DNA from: Desulfosudis oleivorans | Lineage (GTDB): Bacteria > Desulfobacterota > Desulfobacteria > Desulfobacterales > SURF-7 | Assembly (NCBI GenBank): GCA_020723305.1 | Contig: DYJC01000005.1 | Span: 221,724 to 285,723 of the forward strand | Length of the DNA: 64,000 nt | Reading direction: 5' to 3' | Shown: positions 9,433 through 27,167 of the stretch, piece by piece | Numbering within the stretch: the first letter of the stretch is position 1 | Layout of the letters: each line of letters opens with the position of its first letter | Notes under the pieces: model-generated | The model's input: the letters and a program-made list of their open reading frames with translations, nothing else | Database searches by the model: none | Told to the model about the DNA's origin: nothing | Position numbers and translations under genes: made by a program

Positions 9433-10200
9433 ATGTATAAAAACAAAAAAGTTATCGTTGTCATGCCGGCCTATAATGCCGAAAAAACCTTGAAAAAAAC
9501 TCATGATGAGGTTCTGGCTCAAGAAATCGTCGATCTGATCATTATCGTTGACGACAGCAGCAGCGATCAAACCGTTACGATCGCCAATAAACTCCCCCAT
9601 ACAATTGTTCATCAGCATCCGTCCAATCTCGGATATGGAGGAAATCAAAAATCGTGTTATCGATTAGCCCTTGACCATGGTGGCGACATCATCATCATGA
9701 TCCATCCAGACTATCAATATACCCCCCAACTGATCCCTGCCATGGCATCCTTGATCGGAAACGGATTATATCACTGTGTGCTAGGTTCAAGAATACTGGG
9801 AGGATATGCCCTGAAAGGCGGTATGCCGATCTGGAAATATATTGCCAATCGATTTTTGACTTTTACGGAAAATTTATTAACCGGTGCCAAGCTTTCAGAA
9901 TATCATACCGGTTATCGAGCGTTCTCCGGACAACTGATCAAAAAGCTTCCTCTTGAAAGGAATTCAGACGATTTTCTTTTTGACAATCAAATTCTGGCAC
10001 AAATTTTATGGCTCGGATACACAATCGCTGAAGTTAGCTGCCCGACAAACTATTTTCCAGAAGCATCTTCCATTAATCTTTTAAGAAGTATTAGTTATGG
10101 AATCGGATGTCTGGTCACTTCTTTTCGGTTTCGTCTTGCAAAAATAGGGATACTGAAATCAAACCTGTTTCCAATGCAACCGCATAGAGAGGCAGAATGA
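9433..10200 (+). CDS. family-2 glycosyltransferase (Dpm1/DPG-synthase-like)
   Basis: 255 aa with the GT-A N-terminus VVMPAYNAEKT...VDDSSSDQT. Its stop overlaps the next gene's start (ATGA at 10197-10200). Confidence 0.85.
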   Translation: MYKNKKVIVVMPAYNAEKTLKKTHDEVLAQEIVDLIIIVDDSSSDQTVTIANKLPHTIVHQHPSNLGYGGNQKSCYRLALDHGGDIIIMIHPDYQYTPQLIPAMASLIGNGLYHCVLGSRILGGYALKGGMPIWKYIANRFLTFTENLLTGAKLSEYHTGYRAFSGQLIKKLPLERNSDDFLFDNQILAQILWLGYTIAEVSCPTNYFPEASSINLLRSISYGIGCLVTSFRFRLAKIGILKSNLFPMQPHREAE

Positions 10201-11126
10201 ATAAGGATGAGCCCGTCCATTTTTTTAATGATAACACCGTCATTTTCGATATTCAGAGATTTTCGCTTCATGATGGTCCAGGAATCAGAACGACCGTTTT
10301 TTTCAAGGGGTGCCCTTTATCCTGTGCCTGGTGTCAAAATCCGGAATCACAAAATGTCCGGCCGGAACTGATATTTTACAAAGAAAGCTGTATCCAGTGC
10401 TTTGACTGCAGAAAACACTGCCCGGAAAATGCAATATCCGATCATTCGATGCTCCGGTTTGATCCAAAGCGATGTACACTCTGCGGTCAATGTGTTACAC
10501 AATGTTTAACAAACAGCCTCCGAATGATCGGTAAAAAATGGAGTGCTGCAGATCTTCTGGGAGAAATTTATAAAGATATTGATTTTTTTATAGATTCAGG
10601 TGGGGGAATTACTCTGTCCGGTGGAGAACCATTGCTCCAGGCAAATTTTTTATTTCAATGGCTTCCTATGGTAAAAGAAAAAAAAATTCATACGACACTT
10701 GAAACCTGCGGCCTGGCCAATTGGATGCAGATTGAAAAACTGCTGCCCTGGATTGATATTGTCTTCTATGATCTGAAACATATGAATGACTCCATTCATA
10801 AAAAATTTACAGGTTGTGGAAATGCCGGAATTCTGGAAAACTTTTCCAGACTGTCCAGGAGCAAATCCGGACTGCAGGCAAGAATGCCGGTTATCCCGGG
10901 TATCAACAACTCCGTTGAGAACATTCAGGCCACTGCTAATTTTCTGAAATCCAATCATCACTTTTCCATCCATTTGCTTCCTTATCATAATCTGGGAGAA
11001 GCAAAACTGAAAAGAATGTATTCTCAACAGCATCCCATGAACATTGCACCACAAAATTCCGAACAGTTGAAACAAACCCAAGAACTGTTTGAAAAGGAGA
11101 AAATCCATGCTGTTCTATACGACTGA
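10197..11126 (+). CDS. glycyl-radical enzyme activating protein (radical SAM)
   Basis: 309 aa. CX3CX2C motif (CPLSCAWC) plus two ferredoxin-like clusters (CIQCFDCRKHCP, CTLCGQCVTQC), as in activases of eliminase-type GREs. Confidence 0.9.
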   Translation: MNKDEPVHFFNDNTVIFDIQRFSLHDGPGIRTTVFFKGCPLSCAWCQNPESQNVRPELIFYKESCIQCFDCRKHCPENAISDHSMLRFDPKRCTLCGQCVTQCLTNSLRMIGKKWSAADLLGEIYKDIDFFIDSGGGITLSGGEPLLQANFLFQWLPMVKEKKIHTTLETCGLANWMQIEKLLPWIDIVFYDLKHMNDSIHKKFTGCGNAGILENFSRLSRSKSGLQARMPVIPGINNSVENIQATANFLKSNHHFSIHLLPYHNLGEAKLKRMYSQQHPMNIAPQNSEQLKQTQELFEKEKIHAVLYD

Positions 11127-13506
11127 CCACCTGGGAAGGCCTGTGGCAGAGAAAAAAAATCTCTCTCGAATTTTTCGTCTCAAAGAAGCTGTACAAAAAG
11201 CCAATCCTGGAATCTGTACGGACCGGTCTGACATCTGGACATCCTATCACAAGATACCGGACAACCGAAAAAAATCCCCTCACATCCGGATAGCGGAAGC
11301 CTTACGCGAAGTGTTGATGTATAAAAAGATTCACATCTATCCGGATGAATTGATTGTTGGAAATTATTCTTCCAAAAGAGTCGGAGGATCTATTTTTCCA
11401 GAGCTTCATGGCGTTCCTGTATTGCTGGATATTTTCAAGTTTTCAAAACGGAAGGTCAATCCGCTTCAAGTCTCTGGAAAGGAAACCTGGAAACTGCTGA
11501 AAATCATTCCATTCTGGAGTTTCCGATTTCTTGCATTAAAAGCCTACCGATCTCCGTTTCAACTTATCCGGCTGCTGATTCATCAACTCAAAGGACATTT
11601 TTATATTATCAATGAGTCTGGCGGAATCTCCCATATTGCCCCGGATTATGCAAAACTGATTACCGTGGGTACCGATGGCATCGTGGCGGAAGCGACCAGA
11701 TTTCAGGAGAAATCGGGCAAGGACACGGAAAAATGGTATTTTTATGAAGCGGTAAAAATCATCGCCAATGCACTTGCAAAATTTGGAGACCGCTATGCAG
11801 ATCTTGCTCAGAAAATGGCTGAGTCGGAATCCGATTCCAATCGAAAGCAGGAGTTGCTGGAAATCGCTCAAATCTGCAGAAATATTCCCAGAAAAGGAGC
11901 CTCGTCATTTCAGGAAGCAGTTCAATCTCTGTTTTTTGCCCAGATTGCCATCAACCTGGAAAGCCTGGATAACTCTGTCTGCCCCGGGCGGATGGATCAA
12001 TATCTGTATCCTTTCTATTTAAAAGATATTCAACATCATAAACTGACCAGGGACAAGGCCAAAGAAATCCTGTCTGCTTTTTCAATCAAAACATCAGAAA
12101 TCATACCTGTTTTTTCAGAATATTTGACAAAAATTCATGGCGGCATGTTCAATGGCCAGGTGGTTACCGTGGGTGGATTACAGCCGGATGGAACAGACGG
12201 AACCAATGATCTGACCTATATTTTCCTGGAAATCATGGATGAACTGCGTATGCGTCAACCCAATTATCATGCACGAATATCCAATCATTCTCCTCAAAAA
12301 TATATGGATCAAATCAATCAGATGCTATCCGGAGGAAGCAATTCTCCAGCGTTATATAACGACACGGTTATTGTGGATACGATGGTTCAACACGGATACT
12401 CGATCGAAGATGCTAGGGATTATACCGGAGTCGGATGCGTTGAGCCGGTGGCACAGGGAAAAAGCTTTTCATCAACCGATGCAGCGCTTGTGAATGTCCC
12501 ATTAATTCTGGAACTGGCGCTCAATCAGGGCAAAAGGTTTGGTTCCTGGTTCAGGTCTGGGGCGAAAAGTATGCCGGTTGAAAAAATGCAGTCCATGGAT
12601 GATATGAAAACAGCTTTTGAGGTTCAGCTTGCCGACCAGTTATCCCGTTTGATGAAAGATCTACAGGCCATTGAAATAGCAAACCGAAAATACCATCCGA
12701 CCCCTCTTTCAAGCTGTCTCCTCGATGGATGTCTTGAGAGCGGCACCTGCTCCACAGCAGGAGGTGCTCGCTACAATTTTTCCGGTATCCAGTGTGTGGC
12801 CCCCGCAGATACGGGCGATTCCCTTTATGCCATTGAAAAATCCGTATTTATAGATAAAAAAATTACACTCCCCGCTTTGGTGGAACAACTCATCCAGAAT
12901 CTGTCTGACAAGCAACTCCGGTCATATTTAAAAGGGATAGAAAAATTCGGCAATGATCACTCAGATGCTGATAAATGGACGGTTTATGTGATCAATAAAT
13001 TTACCGATGAATTGAACAGATATCAAAATACTCGCGGTGGCCGTTATGTTACGGGCCTCTACTCGGTTACTTTACATGAATACTACGGAAGAATTACAGG
13101 TGCTCTTCCAAACGGCAGGAAAATGGGAGAAAGCTTTTCTTCCGGCATTTCTCCCTCCAATGGAATGGACAGACTTGGACCGACAGCGCTCATCAATTCG
13201 ATCAATCGGATTGATTTTACAAAAACCGCCAATGGAATCAACTTTAACCTGAAATTTGACAGCCGGACACTCCGGGGATCGACCGGCAAGCTTGCATTAA
13301 AAAATCTGTTGTCCACCTATTTCAGAAAAGGAGGCATGCAGGCCCAGGTGAATGTCCTGGACCCAGCCATATTGCTCGCTGCAAAGGAAAATCCGGATCT
13401 GTATCCCAATCTTCTTGTTCGGGTTTCCGGATATTCGGCCTATTTCAACGATCTTTCATTGGAAATGAAGGATGAAATTATCCGGAGAAGCAGTCTTACA
13501 AACTAA
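11107..13506 (+). CDS. glycyl-radical enzyme, PFL2/eliminase class, substrate unknown
   Basis: About 800 aa. Thiyl loop GVGCVEP and glycyl-radical motif LVRVSGYSAYFNDL. The likely start is ATG 11107, 7 nt after AAGGAG (11094-11099). The track ORF begins at 11089. Confidence 0.9.
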   Translation: MLFYTTDHLGRPVAEKKNLSRIFRLKEAVQKANPGICTDRSDIWTSYHKIPDNRKKSPHIRIAEALREVLMYKKIHIYPDELIVGNYSSKRVGGSIFPELHGVPVLLDIFKFSKRKVNPLQVSGKETWKLLKIIPFWSFRFLALKAYRSPFQLIRLLIHQLKGHFYIINESGGISHIAPDYAKLITVGTDGIVAEATRFQEKSGKDTEKWYFYEAVKIIANALAKFGDRYADLAQKMAESESDSNRKQELLEIAQICRNIPRKGASSFQEAVQSLFFAQIAINLESLDNSVCPGRMDQYLYPFYLKDIQHHKLTRDKAKEILSAFSIKTSEIIPVFSEYLTKIHGGMFNGQVVTVGGLQPDGTDGTNDLTYIFLEIMDELRMRQPNYHARISNHSPQKYMDQINQMLSGGSNSPALYNDTVIVDTMVQHGYSIEDARDYTGVGCVEPVAQGKSFSSTDAALVNVPLILELALNQGKRFGSWFRSGAKSMPVEKMQSMDDMKTAFEVQLADQLSRLMKDLQAIEIANRKYHPTPLSSCLLDGCLESGTCSTAGGARYNFSGIQCVAPADTGDSLYAIEKSVFIDKKITLPALVEQLIQNLSDKQLRSYLKGIEKFGNDHSDADKWTVYVINKFTDELNRYQNTRGGRYVTGLYSVTLHEYYGRITGALPNGRKMGESFSSGISPSNGMDRLGPTALINSINRIDFTKTANGINFNLKFDSRTLRGSTGKLALKNLLSTYFRKGGMQAQVNVLDPAILLAAKENPDLYPNLLVRVSGYSAYFNDLSLEMKDEIIRRSSLTN

Positions 13507-14602
13507 CCGGTGAATGTTTCATCCCAAAAGCACTGGCAACCTCTTCGCAGGTTAATTGCCCCTTGTAAACATTCAGGCCCTGTTCCAAAGCTGAATTTTC
13601 CTTAAGGGCTTTTTTCAAACCTTTATTGGCCAATTCAAGAACATAAGAGAGCGTTGCATTGGTCAATGCATAGGTTGATGTACGCGGTACAGCACCCGGC
13701 ATATTGGCAACACAATAATGCACGATGTTATCAACAATATACATCGGATTATCATGGGTTGTTGGTTTGCTCGTTTCTGCGCATCCTCCCTGATCAATAG
13801 CTATATCAACCAGTGCCGAACCTGGTTCCATGCCTTTAAGATAGTCTTTTTTAATCAGTTTGGGCGCTTTTGCTCCGGGTATCAAAACCGCCCCGATCAC
13901 CAAATCTGCACTGAGAATACTTCGCTCCAGATTAACGGGATTTGACATCAATGTCACTGCTTGTGAATAAAAAAGATGGTCTAGATAACGAAGTCTTTCC
14001 TGATTGATATCGAGAATGGTAACCCTGGCACCCATGCCAATGGCAACCTGTGCTGCATTAATCCCGGATATCCCTCCTCCGACAATGGTTACACGCGCAG
14101 GCGCAACACCCGGAACACCGGATACAAGAAGTCCCTTTCCTCCGTTTTTTGCCTCCAGACAGGCACAACCCATTTGAACAGAAAGCCTTCCGGCTACCGC
14201 ACTCATAGGCGCTAGCAAAGGAAGAGATCCATTTTCAAGCTGAATGGTTTCATAGGCGACTCCGATCACTTTACGATCCAGCAATACCTGGGTCAATTTC
14301 TGATCCGCTGCAAGATGCAGAAATGTAAATAGAATCTGGCCTTCCTTCATTAAACCGAATTCCGGTTCAAGCGGTTCTTTCACCTTAACAATCAAGTCCG
14401 CTTCAGCCCAAACAGCATCCGGAGTATTTACAATTCGAGCTCCGGTTCGTACGTACTCCTTATCGATAATTCCAGAACCGTCTCCCGCCCCTTTTTCCAC
14501 ATAAACCTGATGCCCGCTCTCTACAAGAGCCGCAACACCGGCTGGTGTTACTGAAACCCTATTCTCTTTGACTTTTATCTCTTTTGGAACCCCGATTTTC
14601 AT
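13496..14602 (-). CDS. ald: alanine dehydrogenase
   Basis: 368 aa with the N-terminus [22 protein letters not shown] and the Rossmann motif [14 protein letters not shown]. Its 3' end overlaps the GRE 3' end by 11 nt. Confidence 0.9.
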
Positions 14603-14648
14603 GGCAAAATACCTCCTGAATTAAAAATGTGATAATGTCTGCTTGTTT

Positions 14649-15356
14649 CTATTTCCCCGCCTTTGGATGTGAAGAAAGTGCATTTCTAATAAAATGCATC
14701 ATTCCCTGAATGATTTTTTCATCATAGTCATCAACTTCTTCACCGACGAATATCTTCATTCTCTCCCGAAAATAATCGGTTGTATAAGAATACTGTAATA
14801 AAAGGATCAAGTTATCCAAACAAAAGGAGGCAATGTACTCATCTATTTCAGGATCAACGATTCCTGATTTTTTTGATTCTGAGAGCATGGAACGATAAAA
14901 CAGTGCAGAGATCGTTTCCATCTTGCGGGAAAGCAATATTGAAAGATGTGATAGCCCTTGGGAGGTAATATCAAGATAGATCTGATTTAACTCCGGATAT
15001 TCCTTTGTGTACTTCTGGGCAGCCCGTAAGAGTCTCTCAATTTTATCAAAAATATCCCCTTTTTCAAGATCAATTTCAGAAATAACCTGTTCAAGAACCT
15101 GATAACCGTAATCCATAACCGTCAAAAACAGGTCTTCCTTGGAATTGAAATAGTTGTACATGGACCCGATACTGACACCTGCCTTTTTTGCAATAACATT
15201 GATATTCGCAGCTTTCAGTCCATGCTTTGCAAATTCCGAAACAGCCACGGTTTGAATTTTCTCCCGCTTTTCCGGAGAGATCTTTTGAAAAGCCTCTTTA
15301 TAGTGTTTCAGCCGTGTATATCCATTTTTTGGATCTATCTCATATCTATTTTTCAT
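14649..15356 (-). CDS. TetR/AcrR-family transcriptional regulator
   Basis: 235 aa with an N-terminal HTH (AVSEFAKHGLKAANINVIAKKAGVSIGSMYNYFNSKEDLF). Divergent from the 15478-20282 operon. Confidence 0.85.
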   Translation of the reverse strand: MKNRYEIDPKNGYTRLKHYKEAFQKISPEKREKIQTVAVSEFAKHGLKAANINVIAKKAGVSIGSMYNYFNSKEDLFLTVMDYGYQVLEQVISEIDLEKGDIFDKIERLLRAAQKYTKEYPELNQIYLDITSQGLSHLSILLSRKMETISALFYRSMLSESKKSGIVDPEIDEYIASFCLDNLILLLQYSYTTDYFRERMKIFVGEEVDDYDEKIIQGMMHFIRNALSSHPKAGK

Positions 15357-15410
15357 AATACAAATTCCACTTGACTTTTATACTCTGTTTTGATTTATAA
15401 AAAAATACTA

Positions 15411-15426
15411 GAGTGAGTTATCACTC
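15411..15426. promoter_or_regulatory. candidate TetR operator palindrome
   Basis: GAGTGA-gtta-TCACTC (6-4-6) lies in the 121-bp divergent intergenic region. A TTGACT box sits at 15371-15376. Confidence 0.3.
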
Positions 15427-15477
15427 ATTATCCAAGATAGCATATTTTTTTCCCCCAGACAATAGGAGGATTTTTTC

Positions 15478-16239
15478 ATGGGTCATGAACTGATTAAAGC
15501 CCGACTCAACCTCTATGCTGTAATGAAAAACCTTGAAAATCTCGTTCAGTTTGATCCGGAAATGGCCGCTCTGTCCAAAACGTGGAATGTTTCCATACAA
15601 TTTTCCGTACTATTCGGGCCAAAGGCATTTATCGAATTTAAAAACGGAAGATGCCGGGTAGAAAAAGGCAAGCTTCCCAGACCCACCATCAGGCTGTTCT
15701 TTATCTCTTCCGCACATTTAAACTGGATGATGGATGGCAAAGGATTCCCCATTCCTTTAAAAGGATTTACAAAAATATCATTCCTGAACGGCGATTTTCA
15801 AAAATTGACGAAGAAACTGGAATACTACCTTAAGCCGACGGATGATCTCCTGAGAGATGAAAAATTCGCTGAACTCAATACCCGATTCACATTGAACACG
15901 GCCGCCCATGCCATTCCGGAAATTGGGAACCTGGATCGGGTTGGCAAACATGCTGTCTCTCATATCCAAACCGGTGATATTCTCATGAAGATCTTGCCCG
16001 ATGGGCCGGCCGTAACCTTACGGGTTCAAAACGGAATCATAACCCCCCTTTCCGAAGAGACAGACAGGCCCATGGCGTGCCTGTATATGAAAAATATTCG
16101 GGTTGCTAACGATTTCCTGAATGCAAAACTGGATGCATTCACGGCGATCGCATCCGGCGATGTGATGATCAAAGGTCAAACCCCCATGCTGGATTCCATG
16201 GGTCTGATATTAGATAGAATCCCGGCCTATCTGGGATAA
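15478..16239 (+). CDS. SCP2 (sterol-carrier-protein-2)-like protein, tandem-domain
   Basis: 253 aa. The C-terminal segment (FLNAKLDAFTAIASGDVMIKGQTPMLDSMGLIL) looks like an SCP2-fold helix/strand motif. Paralogous to 19506-20282. Confidence 0.5.
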   Translation: MGHELIKARLNLYAVMKNLENLVQFDPEMAALSKTWNVSIQFSVLFGPKAFIEFKNGRCRVEKGKLPRPTIRLFFISSAHLNWMMDGKGFPIPLKGFTKISFLNGDFQKLTKKLEYYLKPTDDLLRDEKFAELNTRFTLNTAAHAIPEIGNLDRVGKHAVSHIQTGDILMKILPDGPAVTLRVQNGIITPLSEETDRPMACLYMKNIRVANDFLNAKLDAFTAIASGDVMIKGQTPMLDSMGLILDRIPAYLG

Positions 16240-16276
16240 GCATTGAACAGATAATCAGGGCTGTCTATCCGTAACA

Positions 16277-17542
16277 ATGAAGGAATTGCATATGAAATCA
16301 TACCAATATTCAAAATCACAGGAACTGTTTAAGCGGGCCGCAAAGGTGATTCCTTGCGGTATTTACGGGCATTTCAGTCCTGCCCCTCTTGTGCCCGCAA
16401 CATCCTATCCATTTTATACAGCAAGATCTGCTGGTGCCAGGTTCTGGGATGTGGATGGAAATGAGTTTATTGATTACATGTGTGCTTACGGCCCCATGAT
16501 TTTGGGATATAATCATCCGCTTGTTGATCAAGCTGCAGCCAATCAAATCAAGTTATCCAATTGCACTACCGGTGCTCCCAGTGTCATGGTTGAACTGGCT
16601 GAGTTTATGGTAGATCTGATTCCGGCAGCCGACTGGGTGTTTTTTGCAAAAAATGGTGCAGATGTAACCAACTATTCGACCATGATTGCTCGGGATGCGA
16701 CTGGAAGGAAAAAAATTGTTATGATCAAAGGCGCCTACCATGGAGCTTCCTCATGGATGCAGTCGCCTGGTCACCATGGGACGATAGAAGAAGATTCGGA
16801 GAATATCATCCGTGTGCCCTGGAATGATGTTTCTGCATTTGAAAAAGCAATAGAGGAAAATCCAGGTAACATTGCTGGGTTTATCGCTACTCCTTATCAT
16901 GTCCCGGTTTTTGCGGACAATGATCTCCCGAATGAAGGGTATTGGAATAAAATTGAATCCCTTTGCAGAAAAAATGGAATTGTTCTCATTGTCGATGATA
17001 TCCGGCACGGCTTCCGTATGGATATGGGAGGATCAAATGAGTATTACGGTTTCAAACCTGATCTGATATGCTTTTGCAAGGCGCTGGCAAACGGATATCC
17101 TATCTCTGCTCTTGTGGGGAATCAGGCACTGAAAGATGTCACGGCGAGGGTTTTTTATACCGGAAGCTATTGGTTCCAGGCAGAACCCATGGCCGCTGCT
17201 CTTGAAACCCTGAAAGAGCTGAAACAGTTGGATGGCCCAAAAAAAATATTATGCATTGGTAAAAAACTGATGGATGGTCTGGTTAATTTGGCCAAAACAT
17301 ACGGGTATAATTTGAAGGTTACAGGAGCTCCCTCTATGCCTTATCTGCGTATTACCAATGATGAAAGCCTGATGCTTCACCAGGACTGGTGTGCGGAATG
17401 TACCCGACGGGGGGCCTACTTTACATCTCATCACAACTGGTTTGTTTCAACAGCTCATACAGATGAAGATATTCAGCAAACACTTACCATTGCAGATGAT
17501 GCATTTCACTCCATCAAAAAACAATATGGTGATCGATTTTAG
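16277..17542 (+). CDS. class-III (HemL-like) PLP-dependent aminotransferase/aminomutase
   Basis: About 416-421 aa; an alternative start at ATG 16292 has the SD GAAGGA. Motifs: GAYHGAS, IVDDIRHGFRM, and Lys in CFCKALANGYP. It lacks the canonical HemL IPGGVNSPVR motif. Confidence 0.85.
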   Translation: MKELHMKSYQYSKSQELFKRAAKVIPCGIYGHFSPAPLVPATSYPFYTARSAGARFWDVDGNEFIDYMCAYGPMILGYNHPLVDQAAANQIKLSNCTTGAPSVMVELAEFMVDLIPAADWVFFAKNGADVTNYSTMIARDATGRKKIVMIKGAYHGASSWMQSPGHHGTIEEDSENIIRVPWNDVSAFEKAIEENPGNIAGFIATPYHVPVFADNDLPNEGYWNKIESLCRKNGIVLIVDDIRHGFRMDMGGSNEYYGFKPDLICFCKALANGYPISALVGNQALKDVTARVFYTGSYWFQAEPMAAALETLKELKQLDGPKKILCIGKKLMDGLVNLAKTYGYNLKVTGAPSMPYLRITNDESLMLHQDWCAECTRRGAYFTSHHNWFVSTAHTDEDIQQTLTIADDAFHSIKKQYGDRF

Positions 17543-17602
17543 CAGGACGGAAAAGAAAAAAACTATAAGCACGATAAAAATCCAGCACAACAGGAGGAGA
17601 AA

Positions 17603-18460
17603 ATGCCGGTTACAGATCAGGAAATAAAACTATTACAAGAAAAGGCTTGCCAGTTACGGAAGGATATTATCGATATCACCTACTGGGCCGGGGGGGCCCA
17701 TATCGGTGGCGCCATGAGCATGGTTGAAATACTGATCCTTCTCTACTACAAATATATGAAAATTGACCCAAAAGATCCAACCTGGAAGGAGAGAGACCGG
17801 ATGGTTCTGAGTAAAGGCCATGGCGGTGTTGGATTTGCCCCGCTGCTGGCCCGAAAAGGATATTTCGATTTCCAGGATCTGAAAGAATTCAACAAATTCA
17901 AATCTCCCTTTGGAATGCACCTGGACAGCCTGAAGGTGAAAGGCGTGGATGTTTCCACCGGCTCCCTGGGTCATGGCCTTCCCATGGCTGTCGGAATGTC
18001 ACTAGGGGCCAGGGTACAAAAACAATCCTGGCGCACCTACTGTATTTTAGGAGATGGAGAATGCAATGAGGGCTCGATCTGGGAAGCGGCCATGGCCGCC
18101 GCTCAATTTAAACTGACCAACCTGATCACCTTTGTGGACCGGAATAAGCTGATGATCGACGGTACGACAGAAGAGATCATGGGGCTTGAACCTTTTGCTG
18201 ATAAATGGAAAGCATTTGGCTTTATTGTAAAAGAAGTGGATGGCCACAATTTCAATGCTCTCGCCGATGCAATCGAATCCGCCCAAAAAGAAACAAAAGC
18301 TCCGGTTGTCATCATCGCAAACACTTTTAAAGGCAAGGGCGTTGATTTCATGGAAAACAATGTAAAGTGGCATTATGGAGGTCTGGATACAGATCTGGTA
18401 GAAAAAGCAAAGGCATCTGTAGACCGAATGTATGAACAGGCGATTAACCTCAAAAATTAG
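17603..18460 (+). CDS. transketolase, N-terminal (ThDP pyrophosphate-binding) subunit
   Basis: 285 aa with the motifs GGAHIGGAMSMVEIL, SKGHG and GDGECNEGSIWEA. Confidence 0.9.
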   Translation: MPVTDQEIKLLQEKACQLRKDIIDITYWAGGAHIGGAMSMVEILILLYYKYMKIDPKDPTWKERDRMVLSKGHGGVGFAPLLARKGYFDFQDLKEFNKFKSPFGMHLDSLKVKGVDVSTGSLGHGLPMAVGMSLGARVQKQSWRTYCILGDGECNEGSIWEAAMAAAQFKLTNLITFVDRNKLMIDGTTEEIMGLEPFADKWKAFGFIVKEVDGHNFNALADAIESAQKETKAPVVIIANTFKGKGVDFMENNVKWHYGGLDTDLVEKAKASVDRMYEQAINLKN

Positions 18461-18493
18461 TGACCCGTTTGAAAAAATAAAGAGGAGGACGCA

Positions 18494-19504
18494 ATGACAG
18501 AAGGCTTAACATGGACAGTCTATGATGCCGATACAATGACCCAGGCAGAAATATATGGAGAAGTGCTTTGCCGGTTAGGAGAAGAAAATCCAAAAATCGT
18601 TGGTCTGTCGGCGGATCTGGCCAACTCCACAAAGATCGGAAAATTCGGTAAAAAATTCCCGGATCGTTTTTTTAATGTTGGCATTGCCGAACAAAACCTT
18701 TTTGGTGTAGCCGCAGGTCTTGCCAAAACAGGTCTGATTCCCTTTGTCTCAACCATGGCAGCATTCACAGCTATGCGGGGAGTGGAACAGGTAAGAACAG
18801 ACATCTGTTACCAGAATCTGAACTGTAAAATCATCGCCACCCATGCAGGTACTTCATTTGGTTCCGCCGGCACAACCCACCATTGCACGGAAGATCTTGC
18901 CATCATGAGGTCTTTTGCCAATATGACAGTGATTGCTCCGGCAGATGGAATTGAAACCGCAAAGGCAGTCAAGGCATGTGTGGACTATCCTGGACCGGTG
19001 TATATTCGCATCGGAAGGGGATTTGAGCCCAAATTTTATGAAAATGAGGAGTATGATTTTCAAATCGGAAAAGCAATTGAGGTGAACCCGGGCACGGATA
19101 TCACCCTGATCTGCTGTGGCGTCACTGTACTACAAGCTGCTGAGGCGTCAAAATTTCTCAAGGAAAATGACGACCTGAGTGTACGGGTGCTGAACATGCA
19201 TACCATTAAACCTTTGGATGAAGAGGCAGTCCTTTCCGCTGTAAAAGACACCCGGAGAATTATCACCTTTGAAGATCATACGGTTCTTGGTGGGCTTGGA
19301 AGCGCGGTTGCTGATGTAATCGCAGCAAGCGGCAAAGGCTGTGCCTTTTCCAAGGTTGGTATTCCAGACTGCTATTGCATTGTAGGTTATCCGGAAGATC
19401 TCTGCAGCTACTACAAACTGGATACGGATGGAATCATTGATAAGGTTCGGGAAGTCATGAGCATGGATTTTGAAGAGGATGATGACTGGGAAGATGAGGT
19501 ATAA
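18494..19504 (+). CDS. transketolase, C-terminal (pyrimidine-binding) subunit
   Basis: 336 aa with the motif FFNVGIAEQNLFGVAAGLA and a C-terminal TK domain. Confidence 0.9.
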   Translation: MTEGLTWTVYDADTMTQAEIYGEVLCRLGEENPKIVGLSADLANSTKIGKFGKKFPDRFFNVGIAEQNLFGVAAGLAKTGLIPFVSTMAAFTAMRGVEQVRTDICYQNLNCKIIATHAGTSFGSAGTTHHCTEDLAIMRSFANMTVIAPADGIETAKAVKACVDYPGPVYIRIGRGFEPKFYENEEYDFQIGKAIEVNPGTDITLICCGVTVLQAAEASKFLKENDDLSVRVLNMHTIKPLDEEAVLSAVKDTRRIITFEDHTVLGGLGSAVADVIAASGKGCAFSKVGIPDCYCIVGYPEDLCSYYKLDTDGIIDKVREVMSMDFEEDDDWEDEV

Positions 19505-19505
19505 C

Positions 19506-20282
19506 ATGGCAACTGAAAGAGATCTGCTGACTGCACGATTGTTTTTACGGGCGCTGTTTCCGGTGATGAAGGTGGTTCTTTCTGATGTTCCGAAAATGAA
19601 AAACCGCTTTAAAGACGTTACCGCAAAAGTCCAGTTTGCGGCTCAAAACAATGCAGGAGAAGTGGGTGCATATCTTGATTTTCAACAGGGAAACCTCGAA
19701 ATCGTTCAGGGGATCTGCCCAAATCCGGATATCTGTTTCGGGTTCGGCAGTGTAAAAAAAATGAACGATATGCTGGCTGGAAAACCGGTAATACCCAAGA
19801 TTAAAGGCTTTCTGAAGCTCGGGCTTTTAATCAAAATGTTCAGCCTTCTCCTGAGTTTGAAAATCCTGATGCCCAATGTAAGACCAACTGCCGAAGATAA
19901 AAAACGGCTGAAGATCAAAATGACCATTTACATGATTACAACTGCTCTCAGCCAGTATAATAAAGGAGGTGATCCGGAAATGGTGCGCTGGACATCCAAA
20001 CAGCCGGAGCGGATTTATCAGATGTCTGTCGATCATGAAGAAATCGCAGCGTATCTCCGGGTAAAAGCAGGTAAAACAAAGGCTGGAAGAGGGTTTTACA
20101 AACGACGGCGTCCCTTTGTTCATATGAGGTTCAATGGGATTGACGGCGCGCTTCCGGTTATCCTGAATGAAGTGGACATGGTGACCGCAGTGAAAAACGA
20201 ATATCTCCTTGTAGAGGGATCACCGGAATATGGACGCGATATCGGGGATTTCATGATGCGGATTCAGAATATGATTACGTGA
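19506..20282 (+). CDS. SCP2-like protein, paralogue of 15478-16239
   Basis: The start is taken at ATG 19506, 1 nt after the transketolase stop. The track ORF starts at 19470. Collinear similarity to the 15478 protein (ARL.L, ...DGK/AGK..IP.KGF.K, C-terminal SCP2-like segment). Confidence 0.5.
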   Translation: MATERDLLTARLFLRALFPVMKVVLSDVPKMKNRFKDVTAKVQFAAQNNAGEVGAYLDFQQGNLEIVQGICPNPDICFGFGSVKKMNDMLAGKPVIPKIKGFLKLGLLIKMFSLLLSLKILMPNVRPTAEDKKRLKIKMTIYMITTALSQYNKGGDPEMVRWTSKQPERIYQMSVDHEEIAAYLRVKAGKTKAGRGFYKRRRPFVHMRFNGIDGALPVILNEVDMVTAVKNEYLLVEGSPEYGRDIGDFMMRIQNMIT

Positions 20283-20313
20283 GAAAAAAGACGATTACGG
20301 CCATTCCTTAATA

Positions 20314-20333
20314 CCCCCCCCCCCCCCCCCCCC
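20314..20333. repeat. C20 homopolymer tract
   Basis: I counted 20 consecutive C residues directly in the sequence. Confidence 0.95.
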
Positions 20334-20367
20334 GATAATTGTGCCATATGGCACAATTATCGGGGGG
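20328..20367. terminator. 40-bp perfect palindrome, probably a bidirectional terminator hairpin
   Basis: CCCCCCGATAATTGTGCCAT|ATGGCACAATTATCGGGGGG lies between the convergent genes ending at 20282 (+) and 20402 (-). Confidence 0.55.
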
Positions 20368-22264: not shown

Positions 22265-23839
22265 TCATGGATGTTGAATGATTAACTCAGACAAATTCTC
22301 GGTTGCGATATAGCTTTTCCCATTACGAAAAGCACTCTCTCTATCTGTAACAAGAGCATAGATCAGCTCTTTCCTATCATCGTTGTTTACATCTGCGACA
22401 CAAAAATCACTTATATATCCGGACAGATCTTGAGATCTTCGGCTCATTGAGAGGCCCATGCCATCCCAAGCAAATAATAGAAACCTTGAATTGCTGTAGC
22501 TTCGAAATTTTTGGAAAAAACGACCGGAAGAAGAATCATTGAATGGAACAATCACGATCGGTTTTTCCTCAATCTCTATCAAAAATGTTCTTTGTGGTAG
22601 ATAAAAACGCTCGCCTTCGTTCTTCTGATTATCCTCAACGGTCTTGACAAATCTTTCTCTGCCGCCATAGGGGACATCACTTTTCCAGGCCACGCTGCCC
22701 GTTTCCCTGATCATAATCAGTCGATCACTTGAATCAAAAGCTGCGACAAAATCCTTATTCTGTCCGGTAAATCCATTTGAAACGCTAAAAACCATTATAT
22801 CACCCGGCAAGGACTTTTTGCTACCCATCACCAAAGTGGTATCTTTCCACGCAAGTTCATAAATTTCATTCATATATGCATCAGAAACTCCCTTTTTCTG
22901 CCCCAGAAGCTGATTACCCTTTTCCGTGCGAACCACCTGGAAATACCAGTTTTGATCCTGGATGATCGGAGAGAACTGTTTGCCATCCCACTCTATTACA
23001 AATGACGATAAAGAACCGGATATAGAGTTCTCACATGAAATATAGATTTCTGCTGTTCCATTCTTGTTGACATCCGCAACATCGATTGAAAGATAGGAGT
23101 GATATTTTTCTCCCTTGATCTCCCCGTGATGAACAACCTCATTCCCTTGAATATGAAAAATATGGATATCATGACCCGTTGCTGCAACCATTTCCATCTT
23201 TCCGTTTGCATCGATATCACCTGCGCCAATAGCAAAGATCTGAAACGGGAGTTCACTGCTTTTCCAGAGGCCGGCATTTTCATTTTGCTTCCTCTGAGGT
23301 GTCAGATGATCATTTTCTGCTGAGGAAGAAATTGCTTTGCCAGGAACAGTTGGTTTGAAAACCTCATTCCCGATATCATTTGCAATATCTTCTGTTGCTG
23401 GAATGAGATCATCCATGGTATTTATTTTCCTGAAAAAAGACCAGGGACCTTGATCTCCGGACATATTCACTACCTTTACATCAAGACTCGCATGTTTTCC
23501 TACGATGGTAATACTCCCATAAACAATATAATCGGTATTCCATTCTTTATAAGTGTTGCGGAGCTCATCCAGACGGGAAGCGCTTTTTTCAAAGGTTTCA
23601 AAATCCGCCTTTGCTACCGGACTGACAATCACAATCTCCCTTATACCGGCAAGACGGGATTCCAGTATTTCGGAAACACCCTTCTGTAAATATTCCATTT
23701 TCTTTTCTGCATTGATTTGAAACGGCAGAACAGAGATACGCTTTCGATCTGCTGCCATTACATAGAAATCCAATATCCAACCATGAAAAAATATAACCAT
23801 AAAAATTAATATAAAATCAAGAATATAGAATCTTTTCAC
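22265..23839 (-). CDS. LpoB/TolB-N-like domain + FG-GAP/VCBS beta-propeller repeat protein
   Basis: 524 aa with an N-terminal hydrophobic segment. ISVLPFQINAEK...DYIVYGSITIVG pattern, and Ca-binding-like FG-GAP motifs (GDIDANGKME, DVADVNKNGTAE, VADVNNDDRKE). Confidence 0.7.
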   Translation of the reverse strand: MKRFYILDFILIFMVIFFHGWILDFYVMAADRKRISVLPFQINAEKKMEYLQKGVSEILESRLAGIREIVIVSPVAKADFETFEKSASRLDELRNTYKEWNTDYIVYGSITIVGKHASLDVKVVNMSGDQGPWSFFRKINTMDDLIPATEDIANDIGNEVFKPTVPGKAISSSAENDHLTPQRKQNENAGLWKSSELPFQIFAIGAGDIDANGKMEMVAATGHDIHIFHIQGNEVVHHGEIKGEKYHSYLSIDVADVNKNGTAEIYISCENSISGSLSSFVIEWDGKQFSPIIQDQNWYFQVVRTEKGNQLLGQKKGVSDAYMNEIYELAWKDTTLVMGSKKSLPGDIMVFSVSNGFTGQNKDFVAAFDSSDRLIMIRETGSVAWKSDVPYGGRERFVKTVEDNQKNEGERFYLPQRTFLIEIEEKPIVIVPFNDSSSGRFFQKFRSYSNSRFLLFAWDGMGLSMSRRSQDLSGYISDFCVADVNNDDRKELIYALVTDRESAFRNGKSYIATENLSELIIQHP

Positions 23840-25556: not shown

Positions 25557-27167
25557 TTATTCTTTGATCTGCTTTAAATCATATGAAACCAGAACGCTTT
25601 TCGGATGACCTCCCAGAACAGATTCTGTTTCCAAAATCAGACTGGCAACCAGTTCTTTTTCCCCATCCTGATCAATATCATCGATTACAAAGCCGGTAAT
25701 GTTTCCGGATAAATTTCGCGTTTCCCAGCTTGGCGCAAAGCCAATCCCATCCCAGGAAAGACCCTTGATATGTGCTTGATCGTTTGAACTGAAAAAACTC
25801 AATAACGATCCAGAATTGTTTGGATTATTAATAACGATAAGTTGATTTTTCCCATCTTCGGTATTATTGATCCCAACCCGCATGGGATAATACTGCCGGT
25901 TTTCAACACCCGGTTCCTCTTTTTGCAGCAGGAAATAAAATGGAAGCGGTGCATATGGCCCTTTTCCAGACCAGCATCGATTACCCGAAGAATCGATAGC
26001 TATCAGTGAACCATCCCTGGTCACAGAAACACATATATCTTCGGCAGTATTCAAAAGTCTTCCAAAGGCCAAACCCAATGCATTGGCCGTATTTTCAGGC
26101 AAAACCGGATCAGTCGGTTCATACTGGCTGTTCTTCCAGACCATCCGGACAATTGCACCGCTGAAAATATCGGCACGACCTGTTCTCTGCATCTGACCCA
26201 ATAATTGTTTTCCCAGGGTCGGATGTTCAACCACCTTAAAATACAAGGAGGAATCTTCGATTATTTTGGAATAAACCCCCTGGTTATATTCAATTACAAA
26301 GGAAGAAACCGTATTTTTAAGCGCATTCAGACTGGTAACAAATATTTCTGCAAAACCGTTCCCATTGATATCAGCGATATCGATACTTATCAGGTTCAGG
26401 TCATCATCGGAAAAAATCGTTTGTTTTATTACAAGCCTTGATTGGTGAATTTGATAAAGATCAACTGCATGGGGTGAGAGGATCACAATCTCTTTGATAC
26501 CGTCATTGTCCGTATCACCAACAGCCAGACTATGGATTATTGTATCAATAGGTTCACTTTTCCAAAAACCAATCATAGCTTTTTCCTCTGAACCATGATG
26601 TGTGATAATGTATGATGAATCTGTGCTCTTGCTTTTTTCGGATTCCATTGCACCTTTTGTATGTTCTTGTTGAGCAGCGGTGATAAAAAATGTTTTTTTA
26701 ATTTCTCCTGCAAAACCATTTATCTCCGGAATGATTCCATCCACAGAAGACAATTCTTTGGATAAGTGTACCGGTAATTTCGATCCTCTCAAATCAAGCG
26801 CTTTTCCCTGGACAATCACTTGATTGCCAAAAACGGAAACGCTGCCATATACAATATAATCCGCCTTTAAATCCCGGCCCAGCTTTTCTGCTTTTTCATA
26901 GGTCAGTGTCCCCTTAATATCTTTCATTGCTTCAGCGATATGTTCCTGATCTATCACTTTTGTTTTTCCTTGCGTTGACAAATGAAAAGTCAGCATCTCC
27001 GTAATCCCGTTTTGCATATATGAATAATCCTTCTCCGCATTGACTGTAAATGGGATGACAGCCACTTGTGGCAGGGAATTCGCCAATGCCTTCAATGGAG
27101 CAACCGGAATTAAAAAAAAGATCACATAAAAGAAAAATATACGATTCTTTAAAATCAAAATTTTCAC
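25557..27167 (-). CDS. LpoB/TolB-N-like domain + FG-GAP/VCBS beta-propeller repeat protein (paralogue of 22265-23839)
   Basis: 536 aa with a GTG start 6 nt after GGAGGA. Signal peptide ...LKALA/NS, VAVIPFTVNAEK...DYIVYGSVSVFG, and FG-GAP motifs (GDTDNDGIKE, DIADINGNGFAE, IDDIDQDGEKE). Collinear with the 524-aa protein over its full length. Confidence 0.7.
   Translation of the reverse strand: MKILILKNRIFFFYVIFFLIPVAPLKALANSLPQVAVIPFTVNAEKDYSYMQNGITEMLTFHLSTQGKTKVIDQEHIAEAMKDIKGTLTYEKAEKLGRDLKADYIVYGSVSVFGNQVIVQGKALDLRGSKLPVHLSKELSSVDGIIPEINGFAGEIKKTFFITAAQQEHTKGAMESEKSKSTDSSYIITHHGSEEKAMIGFWKSEPIDTIIHSLAVGDTDNDGIKEIVILSPHAVDLYQIHQSRLVIKQTIFSDDDLNLISIDIADINGNGFAEIFVTSLNALKNTVSSFVIEYNQGVYSKIIEDSSLYFKVVEHPTLGKQLLGQMQRTGRADIFSGAIVRMVWKNSQYEPTDPVLPENTANALGLAFGRLLNTAEDICVSVTRDGSLIAIDSSGNRCWSGKGPYAPLPFYFLLQKEEPGVENRQYYPMRVGINNTEDGKNQLIVINNPNNSGSLLSFFSSNDQAHIKGLSWDGIGFAPSWETRNLSGNITGFVIDDIDQDGEKELVASLILETESVLGGHPKSVLVSYDLKQIKE

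Follow-up and report, generated by a model that had tools for sequence, protein, structure and literature searches.

In a 64,000-nucleotide stretch of the genome of Desulfosudis oleivorans (GenBank assembly GCA_020723305.1, contig DYJC01000005.1; the whole 64-kb stretch is referred to here as the window), genes for an alanine dehydrogenase (Ald) and a TetR-family regulator adjoin a divergent operon that encodes two SCP2-like proteins (S1 and S2), a class-III aminotransferase (AT) and the two halves of a split transketolase (TK-N and TK-C). What such a combination is for is the question raised by this locus, and the initial annotation, made from the sequence alone, had offered it as the candidate for an undescribed pathway lying beside a glycyl-radical enzyme (GRE). 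The question was approached here through what could be observed, namely gene content, conservation, family assignments, active-site substitutions and a conserved operator. The five genes S1-AT-TKN-TKC-S2 proved to be a coherent, undescribed and non-housekeeping module, complete in 46 of 64 loci and spread over about nine phyla, and the relationships of its proteins tentatively suggest a lipophilic amino alcohol as the substrate, whereas the proposed link to the GRE was not upheld.

Gene content and order of the locus

Genes in the window were located by listing of open reading frames (ORFs) and by hidden Markov model (HMM) scans against Pfam and NCBIfam. All seven genes named in the initial annotation were recovered at their coordinates, with ald and the TetR gene on the minus strand followed by S1-AT-TKN-TKC-S2, all on the plus strand, and a strong terminator at the end:

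13496..14602, minus strand: ald, alanine dehydrogenase (TIGR00518, 526 bits versus a cut-off of 392)
14649..15356, minus strand: TetR-family regulator, divergent from the cassette (Pfam TetR_N, 47.6 bits)
15411..15426, no strand: putative TetR operator GAGTGAgttaTCACTC, a palindrome 68 nt upstream of the S1 start
15478..16239, plus strand: S1, 253 aa, predicted tandem SCP2 fold (Pfam SCP2, 22.7 bits versus a cut-off of 21.3)
16277..17542, plus strand: class-III (fold type I) aminotransferase, FumI-like (Aminotran_3; best solved relative FumI)
17603..18460, plus strand: TK-N, transketolase N (thiamine diphosphate (ThDP)-binding) subunit (Transketolase_N, 161.6 bits)
18494..19504, plus strand: TK-C, transketolase C (pyrimidine-binding and C-terminal) subunit (Transket_pyr, Transketolase_C)
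19506..20282, plus strand: S2, 258 aa, predicted tandem SCP2-fold paralogue of S1 (zero Pfam or NCBIfam matches; related to S1 by BLASTP)
20328..20367, plus strand: intrinsic terminator closing the operon (18-bp stem, then a T-rich tail)

Within the operon the genes are separated by 37, 60, 33 and 1 nt, in agreement with the gaps of 1-60 nt first described.

Conservation and distribution of the cassette

A genome scan with an alignment of the aminotransferase covered 600 candidate stretches, of which at least 567 encode a relative. The loci retrieved were compared by tblastn with clustering of the neighbouring genes, and gene content was counted over the 64 loci with room for all of the genes. 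The 46 complete cassettes shared identical gene order and spacing; S1 and the aminotransferase only were found in 7/64 loci, the aminotransferase only in 10/64, and S1 was absent at the thresholds used in 1/64. The transketolase and S2 strictly co-occurred, no locus (0/64) having either without the other, and S1 accompanied the aminotransferase even where the transketolase was missing. The phyla represented were Desulfobacterota, Spirochaetota, Myxococcota, Nitrospirota, Hydrogenedentota, Actinomycetota, Bacteroidota, Chloroflexota and Bacillota, and the groups carrying the cassette included Leptospirales, Thermoleophilia, Draconibacterium, Anaerolineaceae and many Clostridia, among them gut Acutalibacteraceae. 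Cultured carriers were found in the Desulfobacterota (Desulfosarcina widdelii, Desulfatibacillum alkenivorans AK-01 and Desulfosudis oleivorans Hxd3) as well as in Lutispora and Draconibacterium. The nearest genome was the Desulfobacteraceae metagenome-assembled genome (MAG) SURF_7 (locus L003), with protein identities of 82-97%, and across phyla the cassette proteins were 65-90% identical.

In the source genomes these proteins are annotated as 'aminotransferase class III', 'hypothetical protein' or 'SCP2 domain-containing protein', and none of the NCBIfam equivalog models covers any of the five. Full-text literature searches for a cluster of this kind yielded no relevant match, and a published description was not found. 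The component folds are all known, and the cassette, its transketolase subfamily and its tandem-SCP2 family are uncharacterised.

Reduced versions of the gene set were also seen. The S1-aminotransferase pair without the transketolase or S2 occurs in loci L010, L011, L015, L024, L075, L077, L078 and L082; in L078 (Paenibacillus) two APC-family permeases precede the pair and a TetR gene follows it, and in the Leptospirales pair loci an uncharacterised protein of ~475 aa follows the aminotransferase. No clue to function came from the genes around the S1-aminotransferase loci without a transketolase, which include GlmS, NamZ, GalT and similar genes. In Pseudomonadales and other Gammaproteobacteria (L039, L049, L050, L060, L062, L066 and L081), a lone aminotransferase with 51-58% identity stands behind a POT-family (peptide/H+ symporter-like) transporter and may represent a separate FumI-like use of the enzyme.

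The aminotransferase is closest to FumI

Among solved structures, the best relative of the aminotransferase was FumI (PDB 6hbs; 328 bits, E 8e-97, 39% identity over the full length), and the next solved match, HemL, reached at most 177 bits. The pyridoxal phosphate (PLP)-lysine context CFCKALANG reported earlier was confirmed, its Lys268 being invariant in 27 homologues. IPGGVNSPVR is the substrate-binding motif that defines HemL; at this position the window protein has IPCGIYGHFSP, which aligns with IPGGMYGHEST of FumI. Scores on the HemL models fell far under the cut-offs (TIGR00713, 215 versus 527; NF000818, 224 versus 398; NF009055, 185 versus 637), and, with the motif replaced, HemL identity was rejected. 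The earlier view that this is unlikely to be the haem-pathway enzyme thus stands, while the closeness to FumI, its nearest characterised relative, had gone unnoticed. GntE was the best NCBIfam match, with a score under the cut-off. With the PLP lysine present and no other solved class-III aminotransferase as near as FumI, the protein is predicted to be a FumI-like amine:pyruvate aminotransferase.

FumI deaminates a sphinganine-like long-chain 2-amino-3-ol, with pyruvate as the preferred acceptor and alanine as the product (PMC3136697). If this pyruvate preference is shared, it would explain the link of the cassette to Ald, which is described below. FumI of Sphingopyxis sp. MTA144, which acts on aminopentol (hydrolysed fumonisin B1), shares with the cassette enzyme the PLP lysine and an N-terminal GxYGH motif. 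The settings differ, however, since FumI sits in an aerobic fumonisin-degradation cluster with esterase and tricarballylate genes and has neither an SCP2 partner nor a transketolase, and its substrate lacks the C1 hydroxyl required for cleavage of the transketolase type.

A split transketolase with a substituted active site

The closest structure to the transketolase pair was the split enzyme of Carboxydothermus hydrogenoformans (PDB 6yaj/6yak; 263-271 bits), which has the same fold and split architecture. In TK-N, the GDG/E/N cofactor motif and the His residues at human positions 37, 77, 110 and 258 were conserved in 49/49 cassettes, and in TK-C the equivalents of E411, H461 and H473 were conserved in 48/48, with those of S385 and R520 also kept. 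The substrate-binding positions have changed: the position of E. coli D469, an Asp invariant in transketolases that reads the C2 hydroxyl of the aldose, was Ala in all 48 cassettes, that of the phosphate ligand R358 was substituted in 46/48 (Ala in 40, Arg in only two), that of L466 was Phe in 48/48, and the GEDG motif had become G(Q/A/S)AG. Human transketolase and the C. hydrogenoformans split enzyme have Asp and Arg at the D469 and R358 positions. The cassette enzyme therefore shares the ThDP/Mg2+ motifs, the activating cofactor Glu and the catalytic His residues with canonical and split transketolases (E. coli TktA, C. hydrogenoformans), whereas it differs from them at Asp469, Arg358 and Leu466 and is always co-encoded with an SCP2 paralogue.

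Because D469 is replaced by Ala and R358 mostly by Ala, with the catalytic and ThDP residues intact, the enzyme is better read as a specialised than as a housekeeping transketolase, and the latter identity was rejected on the active-site substitutions together with the fixed gene order. It is predicted to be a distinct natural subfamily that is competent for ketol transfer and not suited to ordinary pentose-phosphate substrates. Use of pyruvate in the manner of DXS was judged less likely, since the His residues, which in transketolases bind the C1 hydroxyl of the donor, are kept and TK-N scores 260 bits on transketolase models versus 48 on DXS models. The PigD/PigE logic was likewise set aside, the ThDP enzyme being of the transketolase family with its donor His residues and not PigD-type. 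In E. coli transketolase, engineered substitutions at D469 turn the enzyme from phosphorylated sugars towards aldehydes that are non-polar, whether aliphatic or aromatic (PMC5073344).

S1 and S2 are predicted tandem SCP2-fold proteins

AlphaFold (AF2) models of S1 (predicted local distance difference test score, pLDDT, 91.8) and S2 (pLDDT 93.2) both comprised two tandem alpha/beta modules. The top Foldseek matches of the two proteins were SCP2 domains (E 4e-5 to 1e-3, probability 1.0), with target-normalised TM-scores of 0.55-0.69 to the alkyl-chain-binding domain of an alkylsulfatase, UbiJ and SCP2. The SCP2-like nature first ascribed to both flanking proteins is thereby supported, and they are predicted to be tandem SCP2 folds. 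S2 is paralogous to S1 (BLASTP E 1e-8) and belongs to a small family, with 175 representatives among 1.84 billion proteins. The predicted fold is shared with UbiJ/UbiT and the SCP2 domain of the alkylsulfatase SdsA1, systems in which an enzyme receives its hydrophobic substrate from this domain; S1 and S2 are unlike these in being stand-alone two-domain proteins that form a small family of their own with no NCBIfam model. S1 is proposed as a partner of the aminotransferase and S2 as a partner of the transketolase.

The cassette has a dedicated putative operator

The regulator has a predicted N-terminal helix-turn-helix (HTH) domain of the TetR family, with the palindrome near the S1 promoter. 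In 29 loci an orthologue (43-88% identity) adjoins the cassette, on its upstream side in divergent orientation or on its downstream side. The palindrome, GAGTGA-N4-TCACTC (DNA of the putative operator, GAGTGAGTTATCACTC), occurs only once in the window at <=1 mismatch, and its arms (<=2 mismatches over 12 positions) are kept upstream of S1 in 27/53 loci from Desulfobacterota, Spirochaetota, Chloroflexota and Bacillota, where ~0.01 per locus is expected by chance on our own estimate. This cross-phylum palindrome is read as the phylogenetic footprint of a putative operator dedicated to the cassette, so that the suspected pairing of the site with the TetR gene, and of both with the operon, gains support from the comparison. 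A search of PDB sequences with the regulator for a clue to its ligand gave generic HTH matches only. In the cultured alkane degraders D. alkenivorans AK-01 (L083) and D. oleivorans Hxd3 (L084) the operon TetR has a TetR_C_6 domain, and GAGTGA-N4-TCACTC is absent from both loci at <=1 mismatch; in these two strains the cassette may be under the control of a different TetR lineage.

Alanine dehydrogenase recurs beside the cassette and the glycyl-radical enzyme does not

Ald adjoins the cassette in 9/59 loci outside the window, in four layouts and two phyla. It is divergent and behind the TetR gene in the window, L003 and L004; part of a unidirectional TetR-Ald-S1... series in AK-01, Hxd3 and L085; placed as Ald-S1... 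in three Bacillota MAGs; and inserted as AT-Ald-AT(IV)-TK in L086. Because it has been recruited repeatedly and independently in four layouts, ald appears to be functionally linked to the cassette, and an accessory role is proposed in which it recycles pyruvate and alanine for the aminotransferase. The recurrence of Ald lends indirect support to the predicted use of the pyruvate/alanine couple by that enzyme.

The GRE and its activase adjoin the cassette in only 1/59 outside loci, namely that of the nearest relative, L003, and the GRE was not counted in the module because its adjacency is limited to the window and L003. Its scores were 516 bits for PFL2 of A. fulgidus, 471 for glycerol dehydratase and 295 for the isethionate lyase IslA, with 647 versus a cut-off of 678 for the PFL2-3 subfamily. 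At 9433-13506 of the window, a GT2 glycosyltransferase, a GRE activase and the GRE have reading frames that overlap at 10197-10200 and 11089-11126, which suggests that the three form one operon; the 3' end of the GRE gene overlaps that of ald by 11 nt. Thus, the co-occurrence search upheld the association of the five genes and ald and not that of the GRE, which is of the PFL2/glycerol-dehydratase type.

Other genes stand beside some of the cassettes. In Draconibacterium (L028) and in Bacillota (L053, L055 and L071), the gene directly after S2 encodes a class-3-like, non-acylating aldehyde dehydrogenase (ALDH), and in L059 an ALDH lies downstream of S2 on the opposite strand; its best match is MdlD-type, and it resembles benzaldehyde dehydrogenase. 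A VOC/glyoxalase-fold protein follows S2 in 9-10 loci and is itself followed by an old yellow enzyme (OYE)-FAD enoate reductase of the BaiCD/FadH family in L044, L047, L061 and L074, the reductase being present without the VOC protein in L070. Small OYE proteins, MFS transporters and beta-oxidation genes occur near scattered cassettes, and acyl-CoA dehydrogenase and FadB-like genes lie upstream of the cassette in L087. Moreover, L086 (1786-13400) holds a variant without S1, in the order TetR-AT-Ald-class IV aminotransferase-TKN-TKC-S2. Behind it, and co-oriented with it, lies an operon for a quinohemoprotein amine dehydrogenase, encoding the alpha subunit, a radical-SAM maturase, the gamma subunit and a beta-propeller protein. 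Taken together, the neighbours of the cassette are catabolic, dealing with amines, aldehydes and lipids.

A proposed route for lipophilic amino alcohols

The reading favoured here, with slightly less than even confidence, is that the cassette is an inducible, TetR-repressed module whose substrate is a lipophilic amino alcohol, with a long-chain 2-amino-1,3-diol of the sphingoid-base type as the most likely candidate. Lipid amino alcohols are suggested as substrates by the relatedness to FumI together with the azinomycin precedent of a split transketolase and an aminotransferase. In that system the AziC5/C6 split transketolase and then an aminotransferase convert an aldehyde via a 1,3-dihydroxy-2-ketone to a 2-amino-1,3-diol (DADH) (PMC9570651). 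Compared by described chemistry, the azinomycin, ficellomycin and vazabitide DADH systems (AziC5/AziC6 and AziC1/C7) carry out the same two reactions as are proposed here. They differ in belonging to secondary-metabolite clusters, in running biosynthetically, in using polar glutamate semialdehyde that is N-acetylated or bound to a carrier protein, and in lacking SCP2 proteins, Ald and a TetR operator. None of the ArgB/C-like or carrier-protein genes of the DADH clusters was found in 87 related loci, and the window neighbours are housekeeping genes.

In the scheme that follows, we infer which compound is the substrate, what accepts the C2 unit, and in which order and direction the steps run. 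S1 would act as a tandem SCP2 lipid carrier that presents the amine to the FumI-like aminotransferase, which would pass the C2 amino group to pyruvate and yield a 1,3-dihydroxy-2-ketone and alanine. Where it is encoded, Ald would return the alanine to pyruvate, freeing NH4+ and NADH. The split transketolase, together with S2, would then cleave the ketol between C2 and C3, transferring the glycolaldehyde unit to an acceptor and releasing a fatty aldehyde or 2-enal; the loss of D469 would fit a ketol without a C4 hydroxyl. The aldehyde (hexadecanal or 2-hexadecenal) could pass to the ALDH or OYE encoded beside some cassettes, or to general enzymes, and then to beta-oxidation, and the SCP2 proteins would keep the lipids soluble throughout. 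AziC5/C6 and the aminotransferase that follows them provide a precedent for this chemistry in the reverse direction; catabolism is favoured here, as roughly twice as probable as biosynthesis, in view of the control by TetR, the likeness of the aminotransferase to FumI and the presence of ALDH, OYE and amine dehydrogenase genes nearby.

Several points weigh against this scheme. Neither a transporter nor a ceramidase or other sphingolipid-specific gene belongs to the conserved core. Three positions that bind phosphate in ordinary transketolases, the equivalents of S385, H461 and R520, are kept, so that a phosphorylated or anionic substrate is possible. Ordinary transketolases use (3S)-ketols, and D-erythro-sphinganine would give a 3R ketol; overcoming this possible mismatch would take an epimerase, a role that the VOC protein might fill, or a transketolase with another stereopreference. 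The only known pairing of a transketolase with an aminotransferase, that of azinomycin, runs biosynthetically. Furthermore, the amine dehydrogenase adjacent to the L086 cassette acts on primary amines and gives aldehydes, which are acceptors rather than donors for transketolase, and the ALDH, OYE and VOC neighbours are found in a minority of loci.

In its fullest form the proposal is possible but doubtful: by a hitherto unknown route that needs no oxygen, the cassette would interconvert sphingoid bases and the pair of a fatty aldehyde and a C2 ketol unit via a 1,3-dihydroxy-2-ketone, and would provide either the first anaerobic degradation without sphingosine-1-phosphate lyase or phosphorylation, or a synthesis without serine palmitoyltransferase, distributed widely among sulfate reducers of sediments, spirochaetes and Clostridia of the gut and relying on a lipid-adapted natural transketolase subfamily and a new tandem-SCP2 carrier family. 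Literature searches turned up no route for the use or synthesis of sphingoid-type lipids by strict anaerobes, and the proposal, if correct, would give the first enzymatic account of either in such organisms, including gut Clostridia and marine sulfate reducers. The transketolase would then be a natural clade with the kind of change at position 469 (Asp to a non-acidic residue) that engineers have used for non-polar aldehydes, and, with its matched aminotransferase, would be of direct interest for the biocatalytic synthesis of amino-diols. Whatever the substrate, the cassette is a defined target for study, being an unannotated multi-phylum operon with cultured hosts and a predicted operator.

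Alternative explanations

Run in reverse, the same enzymes would synthesise a sphingoid-type base without serine palmitoyltransferase, the transketolase adding a C2 ketol unit to a fatty aldehyde, the aminotransferase aminating the product with alanine supplied by Ald, and S1 and S2 serving as chaperones like UbiJ. This is considered unlikely, although the azinomycin enzymes run in exactly this order, from transketolase to aminotransferase to DADH (PMC9570651), SCP2 proteins such as UbiJ serve lipid biosynthesis, the core is without an uptake system, the proteins are very strongly conserved (at the identities given above) and Ald is also able to drive amination. Against it, the non-acylating MdlD-type ALDH placed right after S2 in some loci would destroy the aldehyde substrate, and no acyl-CoA or acyl-ACP reductase is present to supply that aldehyde. 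In addition, FumI, the closest characterised aminotransferase, is catabolic, as are the amine dehydrogenase and beta-oxidation neighbours, and TetR-type repression with a patchy distribution over phyla is more typical of inducible catabolism.

The L086 locus, with its amine dehydrogenase operon following the cassette and its second, class-IV aminotransferase, directs attention to hydrophobic primary amines. In a module for the catabolism or detoxification of alkylamines or arylethylamines, the aminotransferase or the amine dehydrogenase would make an aldehyde that the transketolase captures by C2 extension. GntE of the guanitoxin pathway interconverts an aldehyde and a primary amine, and its rank as the best NCBIfam match of the aminotransferase is in line with such a role, as are the fit of D469A to aldehydes without an alpha-hydroxyl and the similarity of the ALDH to benzaldehyde dehydrogenase. 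The amine dehydrogenase link comes from a single locus, however, and the ketol product would be a dead end for which the conserved core has no enzyme. The ALDH alone would be enough to remove the aldehyde, leaving the co-inheritance of the transketolase unexplained, and this alternative is considered quite improbable.

An organosulfonate or other small-molecule pathway coupled to the neighbouring GRE (taurine, isethionate or sulfo-transketolase-like), the framework within which the locus had initially been discussed, is very improbable. Ald and an amine:pyruvate aminotransferase together follow the logic of taurine catabolism, where Tpa is co-encoded with Ald as the aminotransferase recurrently is in the cassette, and split transketolases act in the sulfo-transketolase pathway; the GRE does adjoin the cassette in the window and L003, and the retained S385, H461 and R520 equivalents could bind an anionic group. 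The cassette aminotransferase nevertheless belongs to another subfamily than Tpa, and no genes for processing sulfoacetaldehyde, whether a reductase or Xsc, and no sulfonate transporter are present in the locus. Hydrophobic substrates are instead suggested by the SCP2 proteins and by the likeness of the aminotransferase to FumI. Coupling to the GRE and the organosulfonate schemes were consequently rejected, given the lack of co-conservation (adjacency in one of the 59 outside cassettes) and a GRE nearer PFL2 and glycerol dehydratase than isethionate lyase.

It is hardly credible that HemL for haem synthesis and a pentose-phosphate transketolase are neighbours here by chance, for although the JGI automatic annotation reads glutamate-1-semialdehyde 2,1-aminomutase and the transketolase halves together reach ~520 bits against a transketolase model cut-off of 488, HemL models give 215-224 bits against cut-offs of 398-527, the N-terminal HemL motif is absent, the Asp469 and Arg358 equivalents of the window enzyme are replaced, and the S1-AT-TKN-TKC-S2 order is fixed over about nine phyla and accompanied by a dedicated repressor.

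Gene boundaries, terminator and remaining genes of the window

S2 is taken to start at ATG 19506, 1 nt past the TK-C stop, rather than at TTG 19470. For the aminotransferase, Met6 (16292) is the probable start, given that homologues have a length of 416 aa and that this Met is invariant among them. The operon ends at the C20 run and palindrome, as originally proposed: the terminator at 20328-20367 (folding energy -37.1 kcal/mol, z = -5.8) has a 5' arm that starts inside the C run. The run of 20 C (region 20313-20367) directly precedes and partly builds this arm, and in L003 the same position carries a different hairpin with the C run absent; the run is therefore a genome-specific feature or one of sequencing or assembly.

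No further tkt and no hemL were found in the window, and no lipid genes except one thiolase. The remaining genes are housekeeping (ArgS, GatA/B, MutL, QueA, Tgt, ProBA, Pgk, GyrA and others), and those 3' of the operon (FG-GAP proteins, GatB and QueA) are unrelated to the cassette. The FG-GAP-repeat proteins are two paralogues of ~530 aa on the minus strand (22265-23839 and 25557-27167), with a 366-aa ORF without a family match between them, a layout that is kept in L003.

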